From Deltaproteobacteria bacterium (GTDB taxonomy: Bacteria > Desulfobacterota > Binatia > UBA9968 > JAJDTQ01): a stretch of DNA of 64,000 nt. Location of the stretch: positions 104 to 64,103 of the forward strand of contig JAPPNF010000051.1 of assembly GCA_028818755.1 (NCBI GenBank), in the 5' to 3' direction. The translations under genes and the position numbers were made by a program. Position 1 is the first letter of the stretch. The number at the start of each line of letters is the position of its first letter. The notes under the pieces are model-generated. The model had not been told where the DNA came from and searched no databases. It was given only the letters and a program-made list of their open reading frames with translations. Shown here piece after piece: positions 1,155-32,940 of the stretch.

Positions 1155-1436
1155 ATGAGCACAAGACGACGGTTCAGCGGAGACTTCAAGGCGAAGGTGG
1201 CCCTGGAGGCACTGCGGGGGGACAAGACGATCCAGGAGATCGCTGTGCGGCACAAGATTCACCCTAACCAGGTGAGCACCTGGAAGCAGCGTGCGGTGGA
1301 GGGGATGAAGGAGGTGTTCTCAAAGGGGGCGGAGCGGGGTCGTGGGGAGCACGAGGCGGAGATCCGGGACCTGCACGCGAAGATCGGGGAGTTGACCGTG
1401 GAGCGGGATTTTTTGGCCAAAGGGCTCAAGTGGTGA
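1155..1436 (+). CDS. IS3-family transposase OrfA (HTH / leucine-zipper part)
   Basis: MSTRRRFSGDFKAKVALEALRGDKTIQEIAVRHKIHPNQVSTWKQ... is the typical IS3/IS2-type InsE-like N-terminal protein. Confidence 0.9.
   Translation: MSTRRRFSGDFKAKVALEALRGDKTIQEIAVRHKIHPNQVSTWKQRAVEGMKEVFSKGAERGRGEHEAEIRDLHAKIGELTVERDFLAKGLKW
1409..1415 (+). promoter_or_regulatory. Programmed -1 ribosomal frameshift heptamer T TTT TTG for the OrfAB fusion
   Basis: In the orfA frame the codons are gaT TTT TTG. orfB lies in the -1 frame and overlaps the orfA end (1430 vs 1436). This is the classical IS3-family arrangement. Confidence 0.6.
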
Positions 1437-2350
1437 GCGGGGAGGAGCGTCGGGCGATGATCAAGCCCGGCCATCCCAAGCTCAGCTTGAGCCGTCAATG
1501 CCGGCTGCTTCGAGTGAGTCGATCTTCGGTGTACCACAGGCCCAAGGGCGAGAGCGCGGAGAACTTGGCGCTGATGCGCCGGATCGACAAGCTGTTCCTG
1601 GAGTGCCCCTTCTACGGCAGCCGCCATCTGTGGCGGGAAGGCGCCTGTGTGGGACGGCACCGGGTGCGGCGTCTGATGCGCTTGATGGGGCTTGAGGCCA
1701 TCTACCAGGCGCCGCGGACCACCCAGCCGCACCCCGAGCACCGGGTCTACCCCTATCGGCTCAAGGGAGTGGCCATCGAGAGGCCCAATCACGCGTGGTG
1801 CGCGGACATCACCTACATCCCCGTCCAGAAGGGCTTTCTGTACCTGGTGGCGGTCATGGACTGGGCCACCCGCCGGGTGCTCTCCTGGAGGCTGTCGAAC
1901 ACCCTTGATGCACGTTTCTGCACCGACGCCCTCTCAGAAGCCCTCCAGCGCTACGGCCGCCCCGAGATCTTCAACTCAGACCAGGGCAGCCAGTTCACCA
2001 GTCTGGAGTTCACCTCCGTGCTCAAGGACTCTGGCGTCGCCATCTCCATGGACGGCAGGGGCCGGTGCATGGACAACATCTTCATCGAGCGCTTGTGGCG
2101 CTCGCTGAAGTACGAGGCCGTCTACCTGCACGAGATCTCGGACGGCTTCCAGGCCCAGCGCCTGATCTCAAGCTGGTTCGCCTTTTATGACCGGGCGCGC
2201 CCTCACTCTGCCTTGGGCGGCTCTACCCCGGCTGAAGCCTACGAAAAGGGAATACTGACGCAGAGGCCGGCCCAGCGCCGCGGCGCGCCTGCCTCTCTGC
2301 CAGCTCTACCGGAACAGCAGGACCTGTTAAACAGGACCCTGGCGGCATGA
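1430..2350 (+). CDS. IS3-family transposase OrfB (DDE/rve integrase core), probably made as an OrfAB frameshift fusion
   Basis: HAWCADITYIP...YLVAVMDWATRRVLSWRLS...FNSDQGSQFTS...MDNIFIERLWRSLKYE matches the retroviral-integrase-type DDE core of IS3 transposases. Confidence 0.9.
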   Translation: MVSGEERRAMIKPGHPKLSLSRQCRLLRVSRSSVYHRPKGESAENLALMRRIDKLFLECPFYGSRHLWREGACVGRHRVRRLMRLMGLEAIYQAPRTTQPHPEHRVYPYRLKGVAIERPNHAWCADITYIPVQKGFLYLVAVMDWATRRVLSWRLSNTLDARFCTDALSEALQRYGRPEIFNSDQGSQFTSLEFTSVLKDSGVAISMDGRGRCMDNIFIERLWRSLKYEAVYLHEISDGFQAQRLISSWFAFYDRARPHSALGGSTPAEAYEKGILTQRPAQRRGAPASLPALPEQQDLLNRTLAA

Positions 2351-2539
2351 CCCACTACCACTACCAGGAATACACCTTATTTCTGCCGCCCAACTGTCCA
2401 ACGAAGTGGGACCACCTCACATCTAGGGCGTGACCTGCTCCCTTCGCCGCGCCCCCGGGGGAGTTGATTCGCGAGCGAGTTCGTTGTAATCTACGCTTCG
2501 GTTGCCGCCGCAGCGACCCGCGTGATTCGGAGGAGTGTC

Positions 2540-3436
2540 ATGCTGAAACTGCCGAACGTGCTGCCGTCCGCCGCGACGGTCGAAGCATCGGGATTGATTG
2601 CCGAGACGTTGCCGGCCTCGACGCCGGCGAGCTGCGATCCCGTCGCGGCCCTGCTGCCGGCTAATCATCCGGGTCGAGGCAAAGGGAGGCCGGGCTTGAA
2701 AAGCCTTTTCGGCGTGCTCGCATTATCCGGATGGATCGGTGTCAGCGTCAGCAGCATGGAAATTGCAATGGCAGGAGAAGCCGGAATTGCAACGCGCTGC
2801 GTGCAGATCACAACAAAAGTTACCGAAGAAAGCCATAGAGCCGATCACTGCCCGAACGAGCGCGTACAAATTGTACGACACACTTTCAAGAATACCTGCG
2901 ACAAAGAAATTATTGTGATGACAAGGAGGAATATAATTGCCGAATATCAGTACAACACTTTGCCGCGCCGTAGTCAGCCTCGCACTGTAACATCAAGAAT
3001 TAGTGATGAAGTTCTCCCTGCTGGGGCAACGTCTAAGGAAAATCATGATCTGTGCACAGAAGCTAAACTTGATGGCTCAAATTTTTCTTACATTCTTCCC
3101 GGAAATTCACCTGAACAAATTATTGCGTGTGCGCAATATGCTAAACAAAGTGACTTAGACATTGACAAATACATTAGCACTAGATTGTCAAATTCACCCT
3201 GCTACGCGGCAATAACGAAAAATCCTCCTGACGGCTATACGGACATTCTCCCGTTTGCCATGTATAGCATTCATCGAGTCCATAGCTGGTATGATCTTGG
3301 TCGCACGGGGGGGCAGTGGATCCCTGAAAAGGACGAATATGTAGGATTTGCAAGCGACGACTTTCGCTTTATCAGCGAGGAATACAAAGCGAGACCGTTA
3401 TCCGAGCTTCCGGCCCCCACTAAAGACGCGGAATGA
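2540..3436 (+). CDS. Hypothetical protein encoded mostly by low-GC foreign-looking DNA
   Basis: ATG at 2540 is preceded by GGAGGAG. A hydrophobic segment (LFGVLALSGWIGVSVSS) is followed by a Cys-containing domain with no family I recognise. From ~2750 to 3420 composition drops sharply (line 3061-3120 counted at 21/60 G+C). Confidence 0.4.
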   Translation: MLKLPNVLPSAATVEASGLIAETLPASTPASCDPVAALLPANHPGRGKGRPGLKSLFGVLALSGWIGVSVSSMEIAMAGEAGIATRCVQITTKVTEESHRADHCPNERVQIVRHTFKNTCDKEIIVMTRRNIIAEYQYNTLPRRSQPRTVTSRISDEVLPAGATSKENHDLCTEAKLDGSNFSYILPGNSPEQIIACAQYAKQSDLDIDKYISTRLSNSPCYAAITKNPPDGYTDILPFAMYSIHRVHSWYDLGRTGGQWIPEKDEYVGFASDDFRFISEEYKARPLSELPAPTKDAE

Positions 3437-5090: not shown

Positions 5091-6266
5091 TCACAGGATG
5101 TCGGCCGCGATGCTGTTGGCGACCCGCATCGCCGCCTCGTGCATGGAGTCTCGCGCCAGATGTGCATACCGCGCCGTGGTCTCCACATGGGCATGGCCCA
5201 GGAGCTTCCCGATCACGGGCAGGCTCTCCCCGAGCGCCAGAGCGCGTGAGGCGAACGAGTGGCGGCAGTCGTGAAGCCTGACATCTCCCAAGCCCGCCCG
5301 CTCGCGGACGGCGCACCATTGACGGTCGATGAAACACAGCCTTTGGCCCTTCTTTCGGCCCTGTATCACCCAAGGGTTGCCCTCGGGGCGCGGAATGCCC
5401 GCGAGCACCCTCGCGGCCTCGGGCGACAGCGACACCGTTCGGGCGCCCGTCTTGGTGTCGGCGAGATGCAACTCCGTGGCTTCGAGGTCCACGTCCTTCC
5501 AGCGTAGCGTCAGGATCTCGTTCTTCCGGCATCCGGTCAGCATCAGGAGTCGGATCGCCGCCGCTGCATGCACGGAGATGGCGCCGCTCGCCTCTGCCTC
5601 CCCCAGCGCACGCCCAAGCCGGCGGAACTCGGCCGCCGTCAGAAACCGCTCCCGCCGCTGCTCGCGGTACTTCATCCGGCGCGGGCACGGGTTGCTCCCC
5701 CCCGGCATCAACCCCCACGCCTCGGCCATGTTGAACATCCGCGAGAGCAGGGCCAGCGTCCGGTTCGCCATCACCGGCGTCGCCCGCATCGCGTAGTGCA
5801 ACTCGCGCACATCCTCCCGCCGTACGGACTTGATCGGCAACTTCCCCAGCGCCGGCACGATGCGCTTCTCAGCTCTTCGGCGGTACGCCCTCAAGGTGCT
5901 CGGCTTGCAGTGCTCCTCCGCGTACTCCTTGAGATACCGCTCGACAAGCTCGGCGACCGTCGGTCCATCCGCGCGCTTCGCTGCCAACGGCTCCGGCACA
6001 GCCTCCTCGCCCGCCTTGATCCGCGCGATGATCAGCGCCGCGCGCCGCCGCGCCTCCTCCGGCGTGATCACCCCGTGTCGGCCCACCGTAAGCCGCTTCC
6101 CCGAGCCCCGCGCGCGGGTCTGCACCACGTAGTATTTCGCGCCGGTAGGGTAGACCCTGACGCCGAAGCCCGGCTGCTCCGAGTCCCAGAACACCGTGTC
6201 CTTGTCCACCTTCAGCGCCTCCACCGTGCGCCTTGATATCGACCTCGTCCCGAGCTTCGCCATCAC
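5091..6266 (-). CDS. Tyrosine recombinase / phage-type integrase with DUF4102-type arm-binding N-terminus (P4-like)
   Basis: N-terminus ...FWDSEQPGFGVRVYPTGAKYYVVQTR. C-terminal catalytic region LMLTGCRKNEILTLRW...HDCRHSFASRAL...LLGHAHVETTARYAHL (R..HxxR..Y). Confidence 0.9.
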   Translation of the reverse strand: MMAKLGTRSISRRTVEALKVDKDTVFWDSEQPGFGVRVYPTGAKYYVVQTRARGSGKRLTVGRHGVITPEEARRRAALIIARIKAGEEAVPEPLAAKRADGPTVAELVERYLKEYAEEHCKPSTLRAYRRRAEKRIVPALGKLPIKSVRREDVRELHYAMRATPVMANRTLALLSRMFNMAEAWGLMPGGSNPCPRRMKYREQRRERFLTAAEFRRLGRALGEAEASGAISVHAAAAIRLLMLTGCRKNEILTLRWKDVDLEATELHLADTKTGARTVSLSPEAARVLAGIPRPEGNPWVIQGRKKGQRLCFIDRQWCAVRERAGLGDVRLHDCRHSFASRALALGESLPVIGKLLGHAHVETTARYAHLARDSMHEAAMRVANSIAADIL

Positions 6267-6282
6267 GCTCCCCGATCCCGCC

Positions 6283-7467
6283 TCAGGCGGCGTCCGCGTC
6301 CGGCCCCAGTATGTCGGCGCCGATGCTGCCGCCTACCTTCGCCGCCGACGCCTTCTCGGTGTCCCGCGCCAGATGCGCGTAACGCGCGGTCGTCGCCACC
6401 TGCCCGTGACCCATCAGCTTTCCGATCATGCTCAGACTCTCGCCCAGCGCCAACGCTCGGCTCGCCCAGCTGTGCCGAAGATCGTGAATCCGCACGTCCT
6501 CGAGCCCTGCCTTCGCGCGAAGGCGAATCCAAACCGCGTCCACGTTGACCATGTGCGCGCCGCCCTTCTTGCCCGCGATCACCCAGGGGTTGTCGCCGTT
6601 CCGGGGAATCCTGTCCAGCACCGCCTCCACCGCCGGGGTCAGCGGAACGCTCCGCGGTCCCGTCTTCGTCTCGCTCAACCTCAACTCCCGCGCCACGCGG
6701 TCCACGTCGTCCCACCGCAGCCGCACGATCTCGTTCTTCCGGCATCCCGTCAGCATCAGCAGGCGGAGCGCGGCAGCCGCCGGGGGACTCACCGAACCGT
6801 TGGCCTCCGCCTCCTTCAGCACTCGGCCCACCTCCCGGTACTCCCCGGGCGTGAGGAACCGCTCCCGCCGGACTTCCCTGTACCGGCGCACCGCCCGGCA
6901 CGGGTTCCGGCCCGGAGGCGCGAGCTCCCACGCCTCGGCCATCGAGAACATCCGCGACAGGATCCTGACCGCGTTGTTCGCCGCCTGCGGCGTCTCGCGC
7001 AGCCCGTAGTGGAACTTCGCGACCCGCGACCGGTCCACCTCGCTTATGGACAGTTCGCCGAGTTCAGGCAGGATATGAGCCTCGATCACGTAACGGTAGT
7101 TGACCTGCGTCCTCTTCCGGCAGTTGACCGCCACGTGGCCCTGCATGTAGCGTTCCGCCAGACCCGCCACCGTGAGTTCCGGCTCCACCGGTTCCGGAAA
7201 CGGCTCCAGGCCCCGCTTGATGCGGTCGATCGCCTCCGCGGCCTGCTTGCGGGCGTCGTCCGCCAGCAGTTGGCCGCAACGCCCGAGGGTGACGCGTTTC
7301 GGACCCTGCGGGCCGCGCGTCTGGACCACGAAAACCTTGCGGCCGGTGGAGTAGACCCTTACGCCGAACCCCTGAAGGTCCCTGTCCCAGTGGACGGCGT
7401 CCTTGCCCGTTGCCGCCAGGGCGTCGATGGTGCGCTTGGTGAGTTTCCGGTCGCTCTTCGTCGACAT
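6283..7467 (-). CDS. Second tyrosine recombinase, tandem paralogue of 5091-6266
   Basis: Same architecture: ...HWDRDLQGFGVRVYSTGRKVFVVQTR..., LMLTGCRKNEIVRLRW, HDLRHSWASRAL, LMGHGQVATTARYAHL. Separated from the downstream integrase gene by only 16 nt. Confidence 0.9.
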   Translation of the reverse strand: MSTKSDRKLTKRTIDALAATGKDAVHWDRDLQGFGVRVYSTGRKVFVVQTRGPQGPKRVTLGRCGQLLADDARKQAAEAIDRIKRGLEPFPEPVEPELTVAGLAERYMQGHVAVNCRKRTQVNYRYVIEAHILPELGELSISEVDRSRVAKFHYGLRETPQAANNAVRILSRMFSMAEAWELAPPGRNPCRAVRRYREVRRERFLTPGEYREVGRVLKEAEANGSVSPPAAAALRLLMLTGCRKNEIVRLRWDDVDRVARELRLSETKTGPRSVPLTPAVEAVLDRIPRNGDNPWVIAGKKGGAHMVNVDAVWIRLRAKAGLEDVRIHDLRHSWASRALALGESLSMIGKLMGHGQVATTARYAHLARDTEKASAAKVGGSIGADILGPDADAA

Positions 7468-7759
7468 CGCATGACTCCTGTTTTCTGCTTGCTACTTTGG
7501 CATTCGATCATTTGCCCGATGCCGTGGTCGGGACAGAGACGTTTACGCATTCTGCCAAGGCCACATACGGACAGGCTCGGCGGTTCCCTTACCCACCGAC
7601 ATTACACTTTGACTGAACGAGCACCGTAGGTCACAGTAGTTTGTTTTATTGTTCTCGTGTTTCCTCCGGCACGCTTTCGTAATCGAACCGCAAGCGACTG
7701 GAATCAAATCCAGGAGTATTGAAGCGCATCTACGACGCGAATACAAGTGCTCCTATTTA

Positions 7760-9081: not shown

Positions 9082-9124
9082 GCTTTGTTATTTGATAGTT
9101 TACTATGTCTCAAAACAAGTTCTA

Positions 9125-11041
9125 ATGTTGAAGAGTAAGATCGCGATGATCTTGGCGGCCGCCATGGTACTGGCAACGCTCTATGGCTGCTCGAGCGGCG
9201 TTAGCGACAGTACACATGACAGAGTTAAGGAGCAAGTGACGGAGCTGCAGGGGACGATTGACGCGATCGGTGCGGCTCTTGGCCTTCCTGCCGGCTCTAC
9301 TCAAGCGGCGATTCTGGCCGCCCTCACCACGGCGACCGCGGACCAGTTGGCGGCTATCAGGACCCAGCTTGAATTGGCCGACGACGCCGACTCTGCTGCC
9401 ATTGTCGCCGCCATAATGGGGCTGCAAGTGGAACCGTCGCCGCCGGCGTTTGTGGATCAGAGCGGCCTGCCGGACGACGTAATGAAAATGGCAGGTAGTG
9501 CCGACATCGCCGCGGGTGGATCTGCGACTATCGGCGAAGTGATGTACTCGTGCGCTGCTGGAGGCGAAGACTGCACCGTCATGGTGAACGAGGACGGTGC
9601 AGCGGTATCGACCGGCGGAACGGTTACGGCGGCGATCGCGCCAGCCTATACCACCCGGAAAGCCAATGAAGCTGAAGCCGAGAGAATCGCGATGGAGACG
9701 GCTGCGACGACTAGGGCGGCGTTGACCAAGGAGACGGCAATCACTGCAGAGCGCGGACAGACGACCGACGCCGGTCTCGGCGGCTCTGCGGTTACTGCCA
9801 CCGGCAATGCCGAAGGCGCATATAACGTCGTTATCGACCCCGACGAGATGACGGTCATGGTTAGAGTGGAAGGCGCCACCGACGACGACGACGAGAATTT
9901 CATGCTGGCCATGGATATGATGGACGGGCGCACCATGCACACCCGCACGCAGGATGCGGATTCTGACGGCAACGTGGTGCAAGAGACCGTGATCGTCGCC
10001 ACTGACCTCGAAGCGCCGGAGGCCGTGGCGTTCGACAAGTTCAAAGTCGTAGCTGCCGATGGAACGGAGACGACCCCTTACATGCTGAACGCCAGGGGTG
10101 ATGGAGTAACGGTGGACGCCGACAATCCGGCTGACGGCATAACTGTAGTAGATGCACATCTAACATCAACAGCCGCCGATCCCGGAGTGCTCAAAGCTGA
10201 CCGATTCAAGGCTCCGGACGGCACTGTCGGAACCGTCACCCTTCCTTTCCAACAGCCAGTAGAAGACGACGATACTACACCAGATGTGGATGAGAGCAGG
10301 GATGCCGCCCAAGTCATGGGTACATTAAACGGCGCCATGGGAGCGTTCCATTGTACCGGTGCTGCCGCTTGTACAGTCACCACCAATGCCAAAGGTGAAG
10401 TGACCGCCGTTTCGGCTAATAACTGGGTTTTCGTGCCCGCCGAGGGTGCCACCTCCGACCAGCCTGACTACGACTACCTGAACTACGGCTTCTGGCTGCA
10501 GAAGACGACGGACAAGGACGGCGTGGTCACCTACGACGAGGTCGAGACCTTCCAGGGTTCGAGGCTCAATGGAAGTGGCAGCGTTGCTAGTGTTACGGGA
10601 AGCGCGAAGTATGAGGGCGGCGCGGTTGGCGTGTACGTACACAAGACGTTCGCCGAAGATGGCACATCGAACGCCACATCCGGCCACTTCAAGGCGGACG
10701 CCAGCTTGACGGCGACCTTCGGGCAAGTGAACGACGACAACGGGCAGGGCACCATCGCGCCCAATATGCTGAACCGCTTGGAAGGTACAATCAACAAGTT
10801 CGTTCTCTCCGGCGGTGAAACACAGGGGTGGAGCGTGTCTCTTAGCGGCGCTATTGATACCGGTGCCGGGACAGCGGCCAGTGCCGCAGATAGTAACACT
10901 CCCTTCAGCGCAACCTTCTACGGGTCGACGGGTGCTGACAACACTACCAAGCCCAGTTCCGTGGCCGGCGAGTTCAATGCCGGCTTCAGCAACGGTTCGG
11001 TGGCGGGCGCCTTTGGCGCAGGTATGGTTGAGGACGAGTAG
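9125..11041 (+). CDS. Surface lipoprotein with a TbpB/fHbp/HpuA-like C-terminal beta-barrel domain (predicted Slam substrate)
   Basis: Signal peptide plus lipobox MLKSKIAMILAAAMVLATLYG|C. C-terminal ~190 aa carry the strand pattern of transferrin-binding-protein-like lipoproteins (YLNYGFW, GSAKYEGGAVGVY, ASLTATFG, LEGTINKF, FSATFYGS, VAGEFNAGF, GSVAGAFGA). Adjacent to a DUF560 gene. Confidence 0.7.
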   Translation: MLKSKIAMILAAAMVLATLYGCSSGVSDSTHDRVKEQVTELQGTIDAIGAALGLPAGSTQAAILAALTTATADQLAAIRTQLELADDADSAAIVAAIMGLQVEPSPPAFVDQSGLPDDVMKMAGSADIAAGGSATIGEVMYSCAAGGEDCTVMVNEDGAAVSTGGTVTAAIAPAYTTRKANEAEAERIAMETAATTRAALTKETAITAERGQTTDAGLGGSAVTATGNAEGAYNVVIDPDEMTVMVRVEGATDDDDENFMLAMDMMDGRTMHTRTQDADSDGNVVQETVIVATDLEAPEAVAFDKFKVVAADGTETTPYMLNARGDGVTVDADNPADGITVVDAHLTSTAADPGVLKADRFKAPDGTVGTVTLPFQQPVEDDDTTPDVDESRDAAQVMGTLNGAMGAFHCTGAAACTVTTNAKGEVTAVSANNWVFVPAEGATSDQPDYDYLNYGFWLQKTTDKDGVVTYDEVETFQGSRLNGSGSVASVTGSAKYEGGAVGVYVHKTFAEDGTSNATSGHFKADASLTATFGQVNDDNGQGTIAPNMLNRLEGTINKFVLSGGETQGWSVSLSGAIDTGAGTAASAADSNTPFSATFYGSTGADNTTKPSSVAGEFNAGFSNGSVAGAFGAGMVEDE

Positions 11042-12695: not shown

Positions 12696-15581
12696 TTGCC
12701 ATTGGCCGCACGCTCCGCCATCCGAGAAACCACTGCAGTCCTCCTGCTGGCCGCCCTGCTCGGATCCGCCGCGGTTGCGCGCGCGGAGAACGAATGCGGC
12801 CCTCCCGTCGCGGATCAGGAGATCGTCTGCTCGCCTTCGACCTACGATCCGGCGGACGGCAACATCTTCTACGGACCCGACGAGGCGAACGAGGGCGATT
12901 TCTCCATCCGGCTCACCAGGGGCCTCTCGATAAACTACGACAGCGGCAAACCCGGCGACGATTTCTATTTTGACGCCGACAACCCTGAAAACCGCCGCCT
13001 CAGCGCCGTCTGGGTCACGCCGCGCGACCACGAGTCCGGCTATACGGGCGACATCTCGCTCGTCTCCTACGCCGACATCATCTCGAGCGGGCGGGGGATT
13101 TCCGTCGGCCACTACGGGGCTTCGGGCGATCTGCGCATGGAGATAGGGGGAGGCTCCATCACGACGACGGGTGCTGATTCTTACGCCATCCACAACTATC
13201 ATGAGGGCGCGGGCGACACCCACCTCGTCGTCCGCGGCGTCACCATCCATACGGACGGGCCGAGGGCCTTCGCCACCATCTCCGGTAATTACGGAGAGGG
13301 CGACCTGAACATCGACGTTCGAAACGCCACGTTCGTCACCGCTGGACCCGTAAGTGACGCCGTTCTCGCAAGCAAGTCAGGCGAAGGCCACCTGCGGATC
13401 ACCGCGCGAGAGTTTTCCGTGGAAACGATGGGGGTCTTCAGCGGGGGCTTCTACGTGCGGCACGGTGGTTCGGGCGTCCTCGGCATCGAAGCGCGCGGCG
13501 GCGCCGTTTCGACGACAAGCTCTCGGAGCTACGGCATCGATGCGCTCCATTCAGGAGAAGGCGACATCCGGATAGGCGCGCGGGAGATCTCGATCGCCAC
13601 GGTGGGAGAAGATGCCGATGGCGTCAAGGGAGGGCATAGAGGCGCGGGCAACCTGAACGTCGATGCGCACGGCCTAGGCGTCGAAACCGCGGGAGAAGAA
13701 TCCGAGGGCGTCTTCGCCGATCATGAAGGCGCCGGCGACGTCAAGGTCGAAGTCCGGCGCTCCGAAATCGCTACAGTGGGCTTACAGGCCGAAGGCGTGT
13801 TCGCGCAGCACGAGGGCACGGGCCGGCTTGACGTCTCCCTGCGGGACCTCGACATCGCCACGGTGGGGAACCTGGCCGAGGGCGTCTTCGCCGCCCATGC
13901 GGGAGAGGGCGAAGGAAGCCTGGACGCGGGCGACGTCGCCATCGCCACGACGGGCGCGGAGGCCGATGCCATCATCGGAGGCCATACGGGCGCGGGCGAC
14001 TTCGATATCCGGGTCCGGGGCGGCAGCCTCTCGACCACGGGCGCGGGATCCCACGGCGTCTACGGCGTTCATAGAGGCGCGGGCGCGCTCCGTATCGACT
14101 TGCGGGACGTCTCCATCGATACGAGCGGAGCGGGGGCCGACGGCGTCGCGAGCGAGCACGACGGGTCGGGTCCGGTCCTCGTCGCGGTGGAGGGAGGCTC
14201 CATCCGCGCCGCCGGGACCGACGCGAGCGGCGTACGGATGGGCCGCCTGAACCAGAGCGGTATCGTGGAGTCCGCCGCTTCCGTGGGCGAGGACGGTTAC
14301 CGGAGCCAGACCGCGGCGGTGAACGGGCGCGTCTCCGGCGGCCCAGGCGAGGGTGCGGGAGTATTTCTCGCGGGGGGCGGCAGGGTCGTCATCGGGCCCG
14401 GGGCCCGCCTCGGGGCGGCGTCGGGAGTCGCGATACGCGCGGCGGGAGACGCGCCGAACCTGCGCGTCGACGTGATAGGCGGCCGCGCCGTCCCGGAACT
14501 GCTGGGCGCCGCCATCCTCAACAAGGGCGGCGACACCGTTCTCGCGGTCAACGGCGTGTCGCTCTATGAGAGCGCGAACGGCGGGCGGCTGGACGCCTGG
14601 GCGCCGAACGGGGCGCGCGACGTCGCGCTCGCCCAGGGCTTCACCGGGCTGGATTTCACCTCTCCCGAGGACTTCGTCTACCGCTACATGCCCCGCGCGG
14701 CCGTCTACGAGGCCCTGCCCGGTTTCCTCCTCAGGCTCGACGCCGCGGGACTCTCGGAAAAGCGCGCCGCATCGCCCGGCTCGCCCTTCTGGGCGAGGAT
14801 ATCGGGCGGCAGGGGTTCCTACGAGCCCGAACGATCGAGCGTGGGCGCGGAGTACGATTTCAGCCGCCTGGCGGCGGAGGCAGGTCTGGACGTCTCACTC
14901 GAAGAAGGCGCCACGGGTTCGGTTTCGGTGCGCAGGATCCGGGGTTCGGCGGACGTGGAATCGCCCGCCGGCGGCGGCAGGATCGAGGCGGAAGGGTACG
15001 GCGCAACGCTCGGCTTTTCCCTCGAGTGGCACGACGCCAACTACACGCGCGGACGCTGGTCGCTTGCGACATACTCCGCCGTTCTTTCGTCCAACGCCCT
15101 GGGCCGCCTCGGTTCGGACATCGGCGCGCACATGAACTCCCTGAACTTCGAAGCCGGCCGCCACATCGCAGTGACAGAGCAGATGCGGCTGACGCCCCGC
15201 GTCTGGATGGCGCGCACGGCGGTCAAGACCGCAAGATTCACCGACCCCGTGAACTCCCGTGTGTCCGCGGGCGACTCCACCCGTTTCGAGGGCGGTCTGG
15301 GCGTCGTCGCGGAGACGGCGGGCGCGCGGGACTGGCGGGGCGGGGCGCTCTCCCTGCGCGGGTCGCTGGACTTGGCGCAAACGCTCGGCGGAGGGGAGAC
15401 GGGCATGGACGTGTCGGGCCGGACGCTCCGATCGGAACCTCCCGAAACCCGTCTCCTCCTGGGGCTGGGCGGGACGTACCGGAAGAGCGTCTTCTCGATC
15501 GGAGCGGAGATCTCGGCGGCCGGCCTCGTCTCGGGCGATTCGCAATATTCGGGTCGGGTCACTCTCGGGTGGAAGTTCTAG
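12696..15581 (+). CDS. Classical (type Va) autotransporter with a repetitive beta-helix passenger
   Basis: Signal peptide ...LLLAALLGSAAVARA. More than 10 degenerate repeats of the type HxGxGDhxhxhxxxxIxTxGxxAxGV. C-terminal autotransporter beta-domain (WARISGGRGSYEPE...AEAGLDVSL...) ending in GRVTLGWKF. Start codon (TTG 12696) is uncertain. Confidence 0.8.
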   Translation: MPLAARSAIRETTAVLLLAALLGSAAVARAENECGPPVADQEIVCSPSTYDPADGNIFYGPDEANEGDFSIRLTRGLSINYDSGKPGDDFYFDADNPENRRLSAVWVTPRDHESGYTGDISLVSYADIISSGRGISVGHYGASGDLRMEIGGGSITTTGADSYAIHNYHEGAGDTHLVVRGVTIHTDGPRAFATISGNYGEGDLNIDVRNATFVTAGPVSDAVLASKSGEGHLRITAREFSVETMGVFSGGFYVRHGGSGVLGIEARGGAVSTTSSRSYGIDALHSGEGDIRIGAREISIATVGEDADGVKGGHRGAGNLNVDAHGLGVETAGEESEGVFADHEGAGDVKVEVRRSEIATVGLQAEGVFAQHEGTGRLDVSLRDLDIATVGNLAEGVFAAHAGEGEGSLDAGDVAIATTGAEADAIIGGHTGAGDFDIRVRGGSLSTTGAGSHGVYGVHRGAGALRIDLRDVSIDTSGAGADGVASEHDGSGPVLVAVEGGSIRAAGTDASGVRMGRLNQSGIVESAASVGEDGYRSQTAAVNGRVSGGPGEGAGVFLAGGGRVVIGPGARLGAASGVAIRAAGDAPNLRVDVIGGRAVPELLGAAILNKGGDTVLAVNGVSLYESANGGRLDAWAPNGARDVALAQGFTGLDFTSPEDFVYRYMPRAAVYEALPGFLLRLDAAGLSEKRAASPGSPFWARISGGRGSYEPERSSVGAEYDFSRLAAEAGLDVSLEEGATGSVSVRRIRGSADVESPAGGGRIEAEGYGATLGFSLEWHDANYTRGRWSLATYSAVLSSNALGRLGSDIGAHMNSLNFEAGRHIAVTEQMRLTPRVWMARTAVKTARFTDPVNSRVSAGDSTRFEGGLGVVAETAGARDWRGGALSLRGSLDLAQTLGGGETGMDVSGRTLRSEPPETRLLLGLGGTYRKSVFSIGAEISAAGLVSGDSQYSGRVTLGWKF

Positions 15582-22486: not shown

Positions 22487-23977
22487 CTACCGCTCTTTCC
22501 TCCAGGCTTCCGCCAGTTCGATGGCCTTGAGCATGCCTTGCGCCTTGTTGAGGGTTTCCTCGTACTCCGCGGCGGGATCGGAGTCGGCCACAATGCCGGC
22601 GCCGGCCTGGATGACCGCGGTGCCGTCGTGAACGGTGATGGTGCGGATGGCGATGCAGGTGTCCATGTTCTTGTTGAAGCTCAGGTAGCCCACGGCGCCG
22701 GCGTAGAGCCCCCGCCTCTGCGGCTCCGTTTCGCTGATGATCTGCATGGCCCGGACCTTGGGGGCGCCGGAAACCGTCCCCGCGGGGAAGCAGGAGGCGA
22801 ACAGGTCCAGTGGCGTCTTCCCCCGGGCCATCTCTCCCCTGACGTTGGAGACGATGTGCATCACGTGGGAATAGCGCTCGATGGTCATGAGCTGGTCCAC
22901 CTCCACCGAGCCCACCTTGGCCACCCGCCCCACGTCGTTGCGCCCGAGATCCACCAGCATGATGTGCTCGGCCCGCTCCTTCGGGTCCGCCAGGAGGTCC
23001 TCCTCCAGTTCCCGTTCTTCCTGCGCGTCCTGGCCCCGTGGCCGGGTGCCGGCGATGGGGCGAAGCTCGATGTTCCGGCCGGTGAGGCGGACGAGGATCT
23101 CCGGCGAGGAGCCGATGATCTTGAGGTCGTCCAGCTCGAGGAAGAACATGTAGGGAGACGGGTTGGTGAACCGCAGGGCGCGGTAGATCTCGAACGGCTC
23201 GACCTGTGTGCGGGCTTCCAGCCGTTGGGAGAGCACCACCTGGATGACGTCGCCGGCGGCGATGTATTCCTTGCCCTTGCGCACCATGCCCTGGAACACC
23301 TGCGGCGTGACGTTGGAGCGGTACTTGACGGCCGATCCGGTGCCCGTGAGGCTCCTGGCCTCCAGGGTCTTGGGCGATTTCCGCAAGGATGACCGCACGT
23401 TCTCGATACGCGAGACGGCGTCGCCGTAGAGGACGCGCGGGCGCGCGCCTTGTTCGATGGGCACGTTGTCGATGATGGTGATGGTGTGCTTGAGGTTGTC
23501 GAAGCTCACGAGAGTGCGCACCAGCAGGAAGTAGATGTCCGGATAGCCGCTGGCCCGTTGTGCCGGGTTGGGGACTCCGTGCAGCATTTCCACCGCGTCA
23601 TAGGATACGTAGCCCAGCGCGCCGCCGGTGAAGGGGAGATCCGGCAACGTGGTTGCCGGCTTGTACCCGTCGAGGATCTCCGCCAGCTCCCCCAGCGGGT
23701 CGTCGCTGGTCCGCCGCTCCGTCTTCCGTCCGCGGGTGATCTCGACGTCGCGCCCCCAGGCCTTGAAGACCAGCTCGGGCGCGGTGCCCAGAAACGAGTA
23801 GCGCGCCCAGCGCTCGCTGCCCTCCACGCTCTCCAGCAGGAAGGAATGGCGGCTTTTCTTCAGACGGTTGTAGAAGGACACGGGGGTTTCCAGGTCCATG
23901 AGGATCTCCTCATAGACCGGGACCACGTTCCCCTGTCTGGCGAGCTCCGCGAACTCGCGGTACGAAGGTTGAATCAT
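22487..23977 (-). CDS. trpE: Anthranilate synthase component I
   Basis: Full-length chorismate-binding enzyme: ...LLESVEGSERWARYSF...GTRPRG...LVDLGRNDVGRV...GAPKVRAMQII...RGLYAGAVGY. Confidence 0.85.
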   Translation of the reverse strand: MIQPSYREFAELARQGNVVPVYEEILMDLETPVSFYNRLKKSRHSFLLESVEGSERWARYSFLGTAPELVFKAWGRDVEITRGRKTERRTSDDPLGELAEILDGYKPATTLPDLPFTGGALGYVSYDAVEMLHGVPNPAQRASGYPDIYFLLVRTLVSFDNLKHTITIIDNVPIEQGARPRVLYGDAVSRIENVRSSLRKSPKTLEARSLTGTGSAVKYRSNVTPQVFQGMVRKGKEYIAAGDVIQVVLSQRLEARTQVEPFEIYRALRFTNPSPYMFFLELDDLKIIGSSPEILVRLTGRNIELRPIAGTRPRGQDAQEERELEEDLLADPKERAEHIMLVDLGRNDVGRVAKVGSVEVDQLMTIERYSHVMHIVSNVRGEMARGKTPLDLFASCFPAGTVSGAPKVRAMQIISETEPQRRGLYAGAVGYLSFNKNMDTCIAIRTITVHDGTAVIQAGAGIVADSDPAAEYEETLNKAQGMLKAIELAEAWRKER

Positions 23978-28924: not shown

Positions 28925-29013
28925 CACCCCGAGCCGACCCTTTCCACGTGACCGATTTTCCCCCGGCCCAACACCATCGGTGACGGGGCGGCCCGGGCTC
29001 TACCCAATCCCAA

Positions 29014-29082
29014 CAACCCGCAATCTGCGGTTGCTGACTGAAAAAATGCAGCCTTTTTTCAGTTTTCAACCGCAAATTGCGG
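29014..29082. other. Three consecutive hairpins in the pmbA-ATPase intergenic region
   Basis: CAACCCGCAATCTGCGGTTG (29014-29033), CTGAAAAAA-tgcagcc-TTTTTTCAG (29038-29062) and CAACCGCAAATTGCGG (29067-29082). The outer two share the CAACC(C)GCA..TGCGG motif. Confidence 0.6.
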
Positions 29083-29172
29083 CCATTTTGTCCCACAGCA
29101 GGTCGGTTATGTCTATTTAATGATCCGATCATTGAATTGACACACTTTGGGAGTCTTGGCAAAATAGGTAGC

Positions 29173-30378
29173 ATGTTACGCCGCCATTTGACTGAAGCGC
29201 TCCGGGCTGCCGCTGCGTCCTATCCGGTGGTGACGCTCACGGGGCCGCGGCAATCCGGGAAGACGACGCTGGTTCAGGCGTTGTTCGCGGATCATCGCTA
29301 CCTGTCGCTCGAAGCGCCGGATGTGCGGGCGAGAGCCATCGAAGATCCGCGCAGCTTGCTGGCTCAAGGCGACAGGCTGATCCTGGACGAGGTCCAACGC
29401 GCGCCCGAGTTGCTCTCATACATTCAGGGTCTGGTGGACGCCGACGCCCGGCCTGGTCGCTTCATCCTGACCGGTTCTCAGAACCTGCTGTTGATGGAAG
29501 CCGTGTCCCAGACCCTGGCGGGGCGCACCGCGTTTCTCCGTTTGCACCCGTTGTCGCTTGCGGAGTTGTCGGAGAGGGAACCCCTCGACCCGCTGAACCT
29601 TGATCGCATCGACGGCCCGCCGGTCGCAATCAGCGGTCCCCCGCCGGGCAGGAGCCTATGGGCCACGCTCGTCGACGGCTTCTATCCGCGAATTCACGAC
29701 CGTGGCATTCCTGCGAGCGAGTGGCTGGCCGACTATTCTCGTGCCTACGTTGAACGGGATGTCCGCGAGGTCATGCAGATCTCGGATGCAAGGGGCTTCG
29801 AGCGTTTCGTGCGGCTGGCGGCCGCGCATACGGCAACGGAGCTCAACCTCGCATCGCTGGCCAGCGATGTCGGCATCACGCAGCAGACCGCCAAGCGTTG
29901 GCTCGCGGCCCTGGAGATCGGATTTCTGGCCACCACGCTCCCGCCCCACCACGCGAACTACCGCAAGCGCCTGCGCAAGCGTCCACGGCTGCACTTTCTC
30001 GACACGGGCCTTGTCTGCTATCTGCTCGACATCCGCGACGCCGCGACGCTGGAACGCCATCCGCTTCGTGGCGCCATATTCGAATCATTCGTAGTCTCGG
30101 AGCTGGTCAAGAGCTTTGCCGCGATCCGCCGCGACCCGCCGCTCTACTTCTGGCGGGATGCCACCGGGCACGAGATCGACATCCTGATCGACGCGGGCGG
30201 CCGTGTTGTCCCCGTGGAAGTCAAATCGGGCCAGACGGTTGCCGGCGACGCCGTCGATACCCTGTCTTGGTGGACGTCGATTCCCTCCAATCCGAACCAG
30301 GGAGGCGTCCTGGTCCACGGCGGAGAGGAGACCTTCGATTTCAAGGGGTTTCGGGTTCTGCCTTGGTTCCTGCGGTGA
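29173..30378 (+). CDS. AAA-type ATPase with C-terminal DUF4143 domain
   Basis: VVTLTGPRQSGKTTL (Walker A), LILDEVQRAPELL (Walker B), C-terminal ...YFWRDATGHEIDILID...VPVEVKSG. Confidence 0.75.
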   Translation: MLRRHLTEALRAAAASYPVVTLTGPRQSGKTTLVQALFADHRYLSLEAPDVRARAIEDPRSLLAQGDRLILDEVQRAPELLSYIQGLVDADARPGRFILTGSQNLLLMEAVSQTLAGRTAFLRLHPLSLAELSEREPLDPLNLDRIDGPPVAISGPPPGRSLWATLVDGFYPRIHDRGIPASEWLADYSRAYVERDVREVMQISDARGFERFVRLAAAHTATELNLASLASDVGITQQTAKRWLAALEIGFLATTLPPHHANYRKRLRKRPRLHFLDTGLVCYLLDIRDAATLERHPLRGAIFESFVVSELVKSFAAIRRDPPLYFWRDATGHEIDILIDAGGRVVPVEVKSGQTVAGDAVDTLSWWTSIPSNPNQGGVLVHGGEETFDFKGFRVLPWFLR

Positions 30379-30414
30379 TGAGCGAATCCCCGCATCGCCG
30401 GAACAGGATCGAAC

Positions 30415-31023
30415 TTACGCGATGTAGCGGAGTAGCAGAAAGACACCTGCGACGAGAATCAGGCCGATCACCGTGGTCGCGGTCAGGTGGCGTTCGACAA
30501 GCGCGCGGGCCGCGGGGCCGAAGTACCAGAGGAGCGTGGCCTCGAGGTAGAAACGGAAACCGCGGGAGAGCAGGGACGCCAGGACGAAGACCCGGAGGTC
30601 GAGCCGGGCGGCGCCGCAGGCGACGGCCACCAGCTTGTAGGGCAGCGGGGTGAGGGCGCCGGCGACCACGATCCACGCGCCCCACTCCCGCCGGTACGCC
30701 TCGAATACCTCGAGATCCCCTTCATAGCCCCACAGACCGAGCAGAGGCTCGCCTACCGTTTCGAAGACGAAATAGCCGATGGCATATCCGACGATGCCTC
30801 CGGCGGTTGACGACAGGGTGGATATACTGGCGAAGAGCCACGCCTTGCTGCCCCGCGCCAGCACCATGGGGATGAGAAGCAGGTCCGGCGGCACTGGCAG
30901 GAACAGACTCTGGAGAAAGCACACCGCGGCCAGTGCCCAGACGGCGTGGGGCGTACCGGCGCTCCGGAGGGTCCAGTCGTAGAGGTTCCGGATCGTAGGG
31001 GACGTTCCCCGCATCGCATCCAC
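30415..31023 (-). CDS. YqaA/DedA-family inner-membrane protein
   Basis: ...FLQSLFLPVPPDLLLIPMVLA...AGGIVGYAIGY... with several TM segments. Confidence 0.7.
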   Translation of the reverse strand: MDAMRGTSPTIRNLYDWTLRSAGTPHAVWALAAVCFLQSLFLPVPPDLLLIPMVLARGSKAWLFASISTLSSTAGGIVGYAIGYFVFETVGEPLLGLWGYEGDLEVFEAYRREWGAWIVVAGALTPLPYKLVAVACGAARLDLRVFVLASLLSRGFRFYLEATLLWYFGPAARALVERHLTATTVIGLILVAGVFLLLRYIA

Positions 31024-31221
31024 AACTAGCCTCTTCCCTTCAACCTGTTCGCCAGATCGTCAGCCCGAACATCTTCACTTCACCGCCAACTCCCCAACTT
31101 GATGGACAGGACAGTTGGGCGGTGGTATGGTCGCCGGGTTTGCTCGTCACTGCGGATTGTGGCGACGAGATCGCTAGAGACTCGGGTCAAGGCAGGATGC
31201 TCGGGTTGAACCAGCAATGGC

Positions 31222-31809
31222 GTGGCGGCGATAACGCAGGCGCGCGATGCAATGTCGATCAATTTGGACGACCTCAAGAAAGGCAGTATGCCTGGCGTGG
31301 AGGCGGACGTCGGCGCATCCTTGGCACAAGCGGCGATTATCTGTTTCGAGGATAGCAAGCATTCAAGCGGTGTAAAGCTACTGGTTGAAGGCACCTTCCA
31401 AAGGAAACCAGAGGTGCGTTGGGCACCGCTCGCAAATCCGGAACAGGCCCGACGCTCTTGGGACCCCGATGAAGCTACGGAAAAGGGCGCAACCGGAGTC
31501 GCTGTATTGCTGATCGACAAGTTCACCGAATACACGGTAGTAGAGCGAGCGATGAAGTGGATCGGAACTCGTCGTGGATCTGGTTTCGACTACTGGCTCG
31601 GCAAGAAGGAATCAAAGTCGTATGGTTCGCAGTTACTAGGCGAGGCTCGGCTTGAGGTATCTGGAATTCGAAATGGTAGTCACGCTGACGTCATGGCGAG
31701 AGTGCGCCAAAAGACAAGCCAGACGGAGGTGTCTGACTGGCTAAGAATCGAAGCCTATGTAGCCGTCGTTGAATTCAGCTCTCCACAATCGATGGTACTA
31801 CGGCGATGA
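31222..31809 (+). CDS. Hypothetical protein, possible PD-(D/E)xK-like nuclease fold (islet gene 1)
   Basis: ORF with GTG start at 31222 (alternative ATG at 31252). Ordered acidic motifs DEATEKGATGVAVLLI ... GSGFDYWLG ... ARLEVSGI resemble an E / D / ExK-like core, but the Lys position is Ser. No family recognised. Lower GC than its flanks. Confidence 0.45.
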   Translation: MAAITQARDAMSINLDDLKKGSMPGVEADVGASLAQAAIICFEDSKHSSGVKLLVEGTFQRKPEVRWAPLANPEQARRSWDPDEATEKGATGVAVLLIDKFTEYTVVERAMKWIGTRRGSGFDYWLGKKESKSYGSQLLGEARLEVSGIRNGSHADVMARVRQKTSQTEVSDWLRIEAYVAVVEFSSPQSMVLRR

Positions 31810-32927
31810 GCGACGTGAGGGATCAACACAGAGATGCGATGCGCTTCGCTGAGAGGGCAAAGACCGCGCGCATCAGTGGACTTGATGAAGAAGCCATCGA
31901 GTTGACCCGACGCGCTTTCGAATTGGAACGAGCGGCAGCGCAATCGCTCCTTGCAAGTTTTGACGCGGAGCCTACGCGTTCGGTCTTGTTTCGCAGTGCT
32001 GCAACACTAGCATTGGAGTGTGGAGAGCTGGAAGAGGCTAGGCGACTGGCTTTTCAAGGGCTTGCGGGATTTCCCCCAAAAGAGATTGCCGATGAGATCC
32101 ACGAAATCGTGGAGGAGGGCGAATTTCAGAAGCACTTGGCAACGAGAGGAGTCAAACTTCAACCCGACGAATTTCAAATGTCCTTAGTAGGACCCGGGGT
32201 TTCGACAGGTATTGCTCCAAGTACAGCAGTGTTGTCCCGCGTGGAAAGCTTGAAGAACTTGGTTTTCCGCACGGGCGAGCGTATCGCAGGGATGGAATAT
32301 CGTTCTCGGGGTCGACGTCGGCAGACCATTGAGCGAGACTATGAGGTTTTCTTGAGTGCCCCCCGGGCCGGTAGCTTCACACTTTCGGTCCACATAGGAC
32401 AGCCGGAACAACTGAGCATCCCAGGTCTGGCCAAGGCCGAGCTTGTAGTCCACGAGCTGTTCGATTGCTTTGATCTGTTGGAGTCAAAGCCCGAAGAGGG
32501 TCTCCGCGAACGCATCGGAAACGAGGCTTACTACGCGAATTTTGTTTCGCTTGCTCGCAGAATAGGCCCCGATGGTGACTCGGTTCGTTGGGTTGGCCTA
32601 AGTTCCGCCCGGGGAGCAGAGAGTCGCCACGTCGAGCTCAAGACAACGCCGGAGTCCTCTACGGTTTCCGATGTCACCACGGGCAGAGTCGAGGAGGCGA
32701 CCGAGGAAACGAAAGTCCAGGGTGTTTTGCGTTGGGCTGATGCCACGAAGGACGCCGAGACGGTCCTTATTATTGATGCTGAGGGACGAAGTCACAGGGT
32801 TCGAATACCACCTGGTGTGGACGACATAGTGAAGCCGCACTGGCTTGATGAGGTAGTTGTGACCGGGTCTCGTGATCGACGCGGAACAATATTGCTTAAG
32901 AACATCGACCCTGTGCCATCTCGATAA
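31806..32927 (+). CDS. Hypothetical 373-aa protein (islet gene 2), helical N-terminus
   Basis: The start ATG overlaps the stop of the upstream gene (ATGA at 31806-31809). N-terminal ~100 aa are helical/TPR-like (RFAERAKTARISGLDEEAIELTRRAFELERAAA...). The rest has no recognisable motif. Confidence 0.5.
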   Translation: MSDVRDQHRDAMRFAERAKTARISGLDEEAIELTRRAFELERAAAQSLLASFDAEPTRSVLFRSAATLALECGELEEARRLAFQGLAGFPPKEIADEIHEIVEEGEFQKHLATRGVKLQPDEFQMSLVGPGVSTGIAPSTAVLSRVESLKNLVFRTGERIAGMEYRSRGRRRQTIERDYEVFLSAPRAGSFTLSVHIGQPEQLSIPGLAKAELVVHELFDCFDLLESKPEEGLRERIGNEAYYANFVSLARRIGPDGDSVRWVGLSSARGAESRHVELKTTPESSTVSDVTTGRVEEATEETKVQGVLRWADATKDAETVLIIDAEGRSHRVRIPPGVDDIVKPHWLDEVVVTGSRDRRGTILLKNIDPVPSR

Positions 32928-32940
32928 GACAACAACTCGC

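Follow-up and report, generated by a model that had tools for sequence, protein, structure and literature searches.

A pair of small overlapping genes in the genome of a Deltaproteobacteria bacterium (class Binatia in the GTDB taxonomy) raises the question of what such an isolated two-gene islet does. The pair lies at positions 31222–32927 of a 64,000-nucleotide stretch of contig JAPPNF010000051.1 (assembly GCA_028818755.1), hereafter the window, and its two genes are referred to as G1 and G2. The original prediction, made from the sequence alone, described them as a translationally coupled cassette with a possible nuclease and a 373-residue partner, a format common among defence and abortive-infection systems. 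We found that G1 was paired with a gene beginning with the N-terminal domain (N domain) of G2 at every reference-genome locus analyzed, that the remainder of the partner is exchangeable, and that the N domain also occurs as a stand-alone phage gene. The reading we favor, held at somewhat less than even confidence, is that the islet is a self-contained mobile two-gene cassette of a toxin-antitoxin-like or abortive-infection type.

Pairing of G1 with the N domain

Both genes are located on the plus strand (G1, 31252–31809, 185 amino acids (aa); G2, 31806–32927, 373 aa) and share the four bases ATGA at 31806–31809, in which the stop codon of G1 overlaps the start codon of G2. This overlap was read directly in the sequence and is present exactly where the original prediction had placed it. 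The longest open reading frame (ORF) of G1 begins further upstream with a GTG (31222–31809, 195 aa). Since the database copy of G1 (P0001) has 185 aa and its closest relative, on a contig (L010) of a Binatia metagenome-assembled genome (MAG), has 184 aa, the true start is probably the ATG at 31252 rather than the GTG at 31222. Residue numbers of G1 follow the 195-aa form, as used in all alignments.

Searches of a collection of 5.8 billion proteins returned 248 homologues of G1 and 137 of G2 (E ≤ 1e-3), all of them unnamed or ‘hypothetical’, with conserved lengths and with identities down to 35–40%. Along with a distribution of guanine-plus-cytosine (GC) content over the codon positions of G1 and G2 that is expected of coding DNA, these homologues bear out the coding nature of both ORFs. 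Neither protein matched Pfam, NCBIfam, PHROGs, PADLOC or, in phmmer searches, the sequences of the PDB, where G1 returned only antibody heavy chains as chance matches (E ≥ 0.046).

Hidden Markov models (HMMs) of G1 and of the three domains of G2 (N, M and a C-terminal OB fold, see below) were run over 80 reference-genome loci. A same-strand N-domain gene was found directly 3′ of G1 at all 80 of them, and a 4-bp overlap, either ATGA or GTGA, was kept at the G1/partner junction of 72 of 78 loci, in agreement with the translational coupling proposed originally. The partner itself varied. It consisted of the N domain only (~ 130 aa) at 51 of the 80 loci and of the N, M and OB domains, as in the window, at 22 loci plus one split copy (L079). 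The N domain was combined with OB at two loci and with unrelated sequence at two others, was fused in-frame to G1 at one (L028), and belonged to a partner cut by the contig end at one (L017). The conserved unit is G1 together with the first ~ 113 residues of G2, and the remainder of G2 is a swappable extension. In a metagenome sample selected by the N domain, G1 was located upstream at 71 of 78 assessable loci and was absent at 7, and the partners were N only at 43 of 70 loci. ORFs similar in size to G1 that precede the orphan N genes of this sample were unrelated to G1 (hhalign probability < 1%). A conserved pairing of the two genes, one expectation of the original prediction, was thus found in both samples.

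Matrices of pairwise identity computed for G1 and for the N domain correlated with r = 0.89 (Mantel p = 0.001), indicating co-evolution of the two. The long N-M-OB form is scattered over several deep G1 clusters and the N-only form is found mainly in one cyanobacterial cluster, for which reason the long form seen in the window looks ancestral. In Calothrix sp. CCY 0018 (L028, 10079–10906), the in-frame G1-N fusion has arisen where the ATGA junction differs slightly in sequence from that of the sister locus L020; it is a single case in which an assembly error is possible. On a plasmid of Hymenobacter radiodurans (NZ_CP037921.1; L090, 5522–6427), the N domain (residues 1–104) is fused to a Bac_transf phosphoglycosyl-transferase (PF02397, E = 2.8e-52), and RefSeq names the whole protein ‘sugar transferase’. 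One of the two partners with unrelated sequence, a 476-aa protein from a Zixibacteria MAG (L025, 10522–11952), gave past its N domain only sub-threshold matches to Nuc_deoxyrib_tr, CAP12/Pycsar TIR and DUF5919; judging from these, its tail may be a TIR-like output module.

Decay of the two genes was asymmetric. At six loci (L039, L085, L088, L091 and the first tandem copies of L011 and L004), G1 was broken or truncated with an intact N domain directly downstream, and no locus was found for the converse case of an intact G1 without an intact N domain. Such an asymmetry would be expected of a G1 that does harm when the N domain is missing, and the ratio of 6:0 is to be read as six cases, several of them in MAGs, in which assembly errors are possible.

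G1 was detected in 282 of 185,579 species (one genome per species), belonging to at least 12 phyla. Cyanobacteria form the majority of the hosts, which also include Chloroflexota, Planctomycetota, Latescibacterota, Zixibacteria, Nitrospirota, Thermodesulfobacteriota, Alpha- and Gammaproteobacteria, Spirochaetia, Acidobacteriota, Armatimonadota and Binatia. The loci share no synteny, with 402 of the 448 clusters of neighbouring ORFs being unique to one locus. Tandem duplications of the cassette were observed at L004 (7326–8952) and L011 (7317–10971), in both of which G1 is truncated and N intact in the upstream copy, and one chromosome of Calothrix parasitica carries two copies (L015 and L020). 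Four matches were located on plasmids, one of them the Leptolyngbya plasmid copy L091, and deposited phage genomes gave no match. The pair adjoins integrases and a Y2 transposase at L007 and CHAT/TPR genes at L005, and the plasmid copy L090 has a gene for a KAP-family NTPase as its neighbour on the upstream side. In Leptolyngbya sp. Heron Island J (L006, 8448–14380), a type III-B CRISPR effector operon (Cmr2/Cas10, Cmr3 and RAMP genes) immediately adjoins G1 and its N-only partner, with a HigB toxin gene nearby. With its foreign GC content at third codon positions (GC3), lack of synteny, multiple copies, plasmid locations, and integrases or transposases nearby, the pair behaves as a selfish or mobile element.

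Predicted folds of G1 and G2

An alignment of 59 sequences of the G1 family revealed C41, A90, G121, D123, W125, E145, S147, G148, G152, R160, E184, F185 and P188 as invariant and H47, T86, E87, R150, K164 and Q167 as nearly invariant. The motifs ATEKG, GFDYWLG and ARLEVSGI, pointed out in the original prediction, are real and coincide with the most conserved positions of the family. In the AlphaFold2 model of G1 (predicted local distance difference test score (pLDDT) 92.4, predicted template modeling score (pTM) 0.89), an N-terminal sub-domain precedes a core in the order alpha-beta-beta-beta-alpha-beta, which is that of PD-(D/E)xK nucleases. The core begins with a helix (82–101) that carries E87 and continues with a strand that holds none of the conserved residues listed (104–109), a strand with D123 immediately before it (124–128), a strand with E145 and S147 (142–149), a helix with R160, K164 and Q167 (154–174) and a strand with E184 (177–184). 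In this arrangement, E87, D123 and E145 are found at the canonical acidic positions of the PD-(D/E)xK fold. When the model was compared with the PDB using Foldseek, 42 of the 50 best matches were restriction-endonuclease-fold proteins, among them tRNA splicing endonuclease, ACE1/Cas4, the SPARDA nuclease domain, CinB, cap-snatching endonucleases, Rai1, RecU and Hjc. A similar picture emerged from the viral structures of BFVD. Two proteins that appeared to be G1 fusions (P0011, 275 aa, and P0081, 266 aa) were merely cases of over-extended N-termini.

Several results weaken the nuclease assignment. None of the fold matches was significant (best E = 0.019, probability 0.87, template modeling (TM) score ≤ 0.38). 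The 59 family members, each searched against Pfam, gave noise only and no nuclease family, the family profile had 0 matches among PDB sequences, and G1 reached no curated nuclease family by profile. The catalytic (D/E)-x-K signature is likewise disrupted, with the invariant S147 at the x+2 position. As the lysine of the motif is a serine, the basic residue must come from elsewhere if G1 is active. Migrated lysines are known from variant PD-(D/E)xK families, and in the model K164 of the next helix or R150 could stand in; otherwise activity is perhaps absent. The degenerate PD-(D/E)xK core suggested originally is, at the level of the model, a fair description that is backed by topology, the placement of the acidic residues and the 42 fold matches, and that has no backing from statistical significance, the motif lysine or a profile link.

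In its size, its two sub-domains and its alpha-beta-beta-beta-alpha-beta core, G1 is similar to EndA (1a79), Hjc/RecU and cap-snatching endonucleases of the influenza PA-N type, from which it differs in sharing no sequence similarity and in fold scores of TM 0.2–0.38 and E ≥ 0.019. Conservation in G1 does not extend to the Tyr-His-Lys triad of EndA. The conserved residues of G1 follow each other as H47...E87...D123...E145...K164. This order resembles the H-E-D-E-K arrangement of PA-N, in which the lysine is placed in the helix after the third strand, and may serve as a lead.

For G2, the model (pLDDT 87.8) and the fold search distinguished three parts on the plus strand: an N domain (31806–32144, aa 1–113), an M domain (32145–32681, aa 114–292) and a C domain (32703–32912, aa ~ 300–369). 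The helical N-terminus mentioned in the original prediction was thus recovered, and the body that it had called otherwise unrecognizable was resolved into domains. The N domain is modeled as an acidic, TPR-like domain of five helices spanning residues 2–111, with the invariant motif EPTRSVLFRSAA and a nearly invariant block E55-P-T-R-S-V-L-F-R-S-A-A66. Its TPR-like helical repeat was recognized by profile and by fold: the family profile matched a consensus TPR protein (E = 6.4e-4), the sole PDB-sequence match of G2, and Foldseek returned TPR matches at a probability of 0.8–1.0, with the TPR models of Pfam matching at sub-threshold level only. The isoelectric point (pI) of the domain is 4.9 in G2, with a family median of 5.15, and many antitoxins and nuclease inhibitors are likewise acidic. 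As the constant partner of G1, the N domain is a putative G1-binding or neutralizing adaptor.

The M domain has an alpha/beta structure in the model, and its invariant residues in the alignments include G129, G135, R159, Y242, N245 and P255-D256-G257. No relative was found for it in the PDB by sequence or by fold. Of the 1,145 representative clusters (50% identity) that the M profile matched among 1.84 billion representatives, 933 had E ≤ 1e-10. Where the listed matches are complete proteins, M starts at about residue 103–138 of ~ 375 aa, and the 150 matches listed contained the N-M-OB architecture only, with no bridge to a known domain. The C domain has modeled strands at 300–310, 319–324, 329–333, 349–356 and 362–369, and with a Foldseek probability of ~ 1.0 and TM scores to the target of 0.45–0.62 it was recognized as an OB fold, the matches being RPA14/32, the PolD OB domain, the N-terminal (anticodon-binding) OB domain of LysRS, IF1, SSB and Stn1/Ten1. 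Judged by this fold, it putatively binds single-stranded nucleic acid. The combination of M and OB was also considered as ligase-like, that is, as a nucleotidyl-transferase followed by an OB domain with ‘APDG’ as motif I, and was rejected, as the lysine is absent, the domain has the motif at its wrong end and the fold search gave no match.

Possible functions of the pair

Phage genomes add a further element to the picture. Among the 11 loci found in IMG/VR via G2, 7 encode a stand-alone N protein of 102–119 aa that has the motif and no G1 within 10 kb. According to PHROGs and Pfam, these orphan N genes are surrounded by phage genes for head morphogenesis, a RecE-like exonuclease with RecT, terminase, portal and decoration protein. 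The N domain occurred without G1 at 7 of 11 IMG/VR loci versus 7 of 78 metagenome loci (Fisher p = 1.2e-4; p = 0.003 by the most conservative count), in samples drawn by different procedures. A wider scan of IMG/VR with an alignment of the phage N proteins gave no further loci. In one phage lineage (L110, L112, L117, L118 and L119), the N gene (105–110 aa) is placed 3′ of a head-morphogenesis-like gene, and its products are 55–91% identical. At L117 (9001–9321) the N gene overlaps the head-morphogenesis-like gene by 8 bp and has a scaffold-like gene on its other side, in a head module that also has terminase and portal genes. The N protein of this lineage could be a capsid-associated counter-defence protein.

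We propose the following mechanism for the favored toxin-antitoxin-like or abortive-infection cassette. G1 would be the harmful effector, a small nuclease of strongly divergent PD-(D/E)xK type that requires metal, and G2 would be produced by translational coupling to it. The acidic TPR-like N domain of G2, with its EPTRSVLFRSAA motif, would bind G1 and keep it inactive or direct it. In the long form, M and OB would act as a nucleic-acid-binding extension for sensing or targeting, which sets the moment of G1 release or the place of cleavage, for instance at intermediates of phage replication or at other nucleic acid in single-stranded form. The stand-alone N proteins of phages would then be decoy antidotes, and the pair would have an anti-phage role. 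That G1 is a toxic nuclease held by the N domain is suggested by their co-evolution, the G1-N fusion, the asymmetry of decay and the phage orphan N genes. A more far-reaching version, which we regard as doubtful, is a new and widespread anti-phage abortive-infection family in which a minimal, atypical nuclease is clamped by a universal adaptor with lineage-specific modules (M and OB, OB alone, a sugar transferase or a TIR-like domain) and in which phages carry stand-alone clamps. The head-module N of the one phage lineage may in that case be enclosed in the capsid, to be delivered along with the DNA.

Comparison with known systems gives partial likenesses. With toxin-first type II toxin-antitoxin (TA) modules (the order of HigBA, MqsRA and HicAB), the pair shares two small, co-directional, coupled genes with an acidic second component, a patchy, mobile and multi-copy occurrence, and decayed ‘toxins’ with retained ‘antitoxins’; pairing at 80 of 80 loci, overlap at 72 of 78, the lack of synteny and the plasmid copies are what such small adjacent mobile genes are expected to show. 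Unlike in these systems, G1 and G2 belong to no known toxin or antitoxin family, the partner has no DNA-binding domain and is conserved as much as G1, and about one third of the partners have the large M and OB part. Hachiman is one of the defence pairs in which a sensor restrains a nuclease: HamB holds HamA, a protein of PD-(D/E)xK-type fold, until it senses a trigger. Its description (PMC11914072) presents two proteins, HamA (DUF1837) and HamB (helicase), the complex of which cleaves DNA. The pair resembles Hachiman in being a two-gene system and differs from it in that the partner has no ATPase or helicase domain and is often of 130 aa only, and the Hachiman models of PADLOC gave no match. 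Phage orphan antitoxins directed against TA-type defence are documented for DarTG, which is likewise a two-gene bacterial toxic module with an antidote domain that is also found alone in phages and can there neutralize the module (PMC11825919, PMC13309987). There is no kinship to DarTG in sequence or fold, DarT being an ADP-ribosyltransferase and DarG a macrodomain enzyme, whereas the N domain is non-enzymatic and TPR-like, and counter-defence by the phage N copies is in the present case our inference.

A number of observations argue against a defence cassette of the TA type, in addition to those on the nuclease fold given above. Antitoxins usually evolve faster than toxins, and here the N domain and G1 are equally conserved (mean identities 54% vs 55%). 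No helix-turn-helix, ribbon-helix-helix, AbrB or other DNA-binding autoregulatory domain was found in the partner using Pfam, the N-only form being a bare TPR-like domain. The system HMMs of PADLOC-DB 2.0 matched neither G1 nor G2 at E ≤ 1. The defence-island setting expected from the original prediction did not hold up. Beyond the prevalence of locus-specific neighbour clusters, the 150 nearest neighbours are mostly metabolic or housekeeping genes; they include 6 GNATs, 2 integrases, 2 S subunits of type I restriction-modification systems, 2 ParE and 2 AAA_21 proteins, and in these raw counts, taken without a background rate, no defence-island signature was found. The different sampling behind the Fisher test and the small number of decayed loci further limit the case. 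The phage lineage with N as a stable member of its head module could finally be explained by a structural or assembly role of the N protein rather than by counter-defence.

The main rival reading is a non-toxic heteromeric nucleic-acid enzyme, a structure-specific nuclease with G1 as its catalytic subunit and the partner as its obligatory specificity or activating subunit. The N domain would dock G1 and may supply the basic residue that the E-x-S motif of G1 lacks, M and OB would bind single-stranded DNA or RNA, and the enzyme would act in repair, recombination or RNA processing, to the benefit of the host or of a mobile element. The obligate pairing of two components that are equally and strongly conserved, the natural G1-N fusion, the OB fold of the partner, the mostly housekeeping neighbourhoods and the placement of the phage N gene in a conserved module, not among early genes, all fit with such an enzyme, and so do the invariant Arg, Ser and His in which the N motif is rich, given the invariant serine of G1 at the place of the catalytic lysine. 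It is nevertheless unlikely in our view, since M and OB are absent from 51 of the 80 partners and the phage orphan N protein has no nuclease to activate. The very patchy spread (282 of 185,579 species), the foreign codon usage, the tandem, multiple and decayed copies, and the lack of conserved repair or RNA-processing neighbours also speak against it.

If the missing lysine is taken to mean that G1 is catalytically dead, G1 could be a nuclease-fold sensor or regulator, with the variable C-terminal part of the partner as the output and the N domain as the switch. The interchangeable C-terminal modules on a constant N domain are in line with this, as they include a genuine enzyme (Bac_transf at L090) and the partner at L025 with its sub-threshold matches to TIR and nucleoside 2-deoxyribosyltransferase-like domains, and the M domain has invariant polar residues of its own (R159, Y242, N245 and D256). 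We consider it quite improbable: most partners are N only (51 of 80 in genomes, 43 of 70 in metagenomes) and hence would have no output, the OB fold is a binding module and not an effector, and the invariance of the acidic triad of G1 across phyla is hard to explain in a dead enzyme. An artefact, that is, chance ORFs or a functionless decayed remnant, would be suggested only by the lack of database annotation. Given hundreds of full-length homologues in at least 12 phyla with invariant motifs, confident AlphaFold2 models, a conserved gene order and overlap, and the well-preserved copy at L010 (84.6% nucleotide identity; protein identity 86% for G1 and 88% for the N domain), this reading is excluded.

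The literature searches returned no description of the G1/G2 pair. As a two-gene nuclease-plus-partner module, it belongs to a kind of system that is already known; new are the constant-adaptor/variable-module architecture and the phage-borne orphan adaptor, and G1, N and M have neither a curated family nor a solved relative. If the favored mobile cassette is correct, it would represent a new family of toxin-antitoxin or abortive-infection modules, a new minimal PD-(D/E)xK branch with an unusual E-x-S active-site signature, and a new adaptor domain marked by a 12-residue motif that is almost invariant, together with a natural case of phage capture of an adaptor. The family is large and yet unannotated, as no curated database holds a model for either protein. 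Its parts, of 185 aa and ~ 115 aa, are small enough to be tractable in experiments. Should the defence reading prove wrong, the strict partnership of G1 and N, with C-terminal modules that are freely exchanged, would still be a clean case for how adaptor domains wire effectors to sensors.

The islet and its surroundings in the window

The pair is contained in a low-GC islet at 31024–32940, which is assigned to neither strand and is supported by GC, GC3 and synteny with L010. As described in the original prediction, it is wedged between minus-strand genes, namely a YqaA-like VTT/DedA gene upstream (30415–31023) and an HMA-domain gene downstream (ending at ~ 32941). The lower GC content reported there was also confirmed, with 54–58% over the islet versus 65–73% on either side, and it extends to GC3, which is 0.565 in G1 and 0.551 in G2 versus 0.75–0.87 in three neighbour genes. 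Since both GC and GC3 depart from those of the neighbours, the cassette is foreign to this genome and was horizontally acquired. A search of the islet's flanks for repeats in direct or inverted orientation, for att-like sites and for tRNA genes found nothing meaningful. A sigma-70-like promoter candidate (TGGACA-17-TATGGT with a TG extension, 31103–31131, plus strand) is situated ~ 120 nt upstream of G1; it matches the consensus at 9 of 12 positions and is a weak candidate from a consensus scan only, in which 2 sites were found versus 0.6 expected.

The Binatia MAG contig L010 is collinear with the window over ~ 20 kb (80–93% nucleotide identity) and has the pair in the corresponding place, with 84.6% identity in the aligned block that holds the pair. 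A gene for an ATPase with AAA_14 and DUF4143 domains (29077–30378, plus strand), which matches the PADLOC candidate PDC-S01 (E = 1e-112), adjoins the islet in the window. In L010, window positions 28925–30449 are replaced by ~ 840 unrelated bases, and the ATPase gene is by this comparison a second, independent insertion beside the islet. A functional link between the pair and the ATPase was rejected, as the ATPase is missing at the L010 site where the pair is present and is not a conserved neighbour of the pair elsewhere.

Other mobile features are located at the start of the window. Positions 1–98 are the tail of a CRISPR array with two repeat copies at a spacing of 72 nt (CRISPR-DR16, RF01330, matched at 61–97 with 46.5 bits in Rfam), and the array presumably extends upstream of the window. 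Just past it lies an rve integrase/transposase gene of the insertion sequence (IS) type (1430–2350, plus strand), followed by a tyrosine integrase of the phage type that has an Arm DNA-binding domain (5091–6266, minus strand); these two genes suggest a mobile or integrated element. The large ORFs at 2522–3436, 6196–7629, 9092–11041 and 12696–15581 had no Pfam match. A link of the islet to the CRISPR tail, the IS element or the integrase was considered and dropped, as they lie 25–30 kb from the islet with housekeeping genes between and no connection is evident. In an unrelated genome (L001/L002, 5964–7460), the pair directly adjoins trpE (anthranilate synthase) of a trp operon. The window also has a trpE gene (22487–23977), ~ 7 kb upstream of the islet, and this likeness is probably a coincidence.

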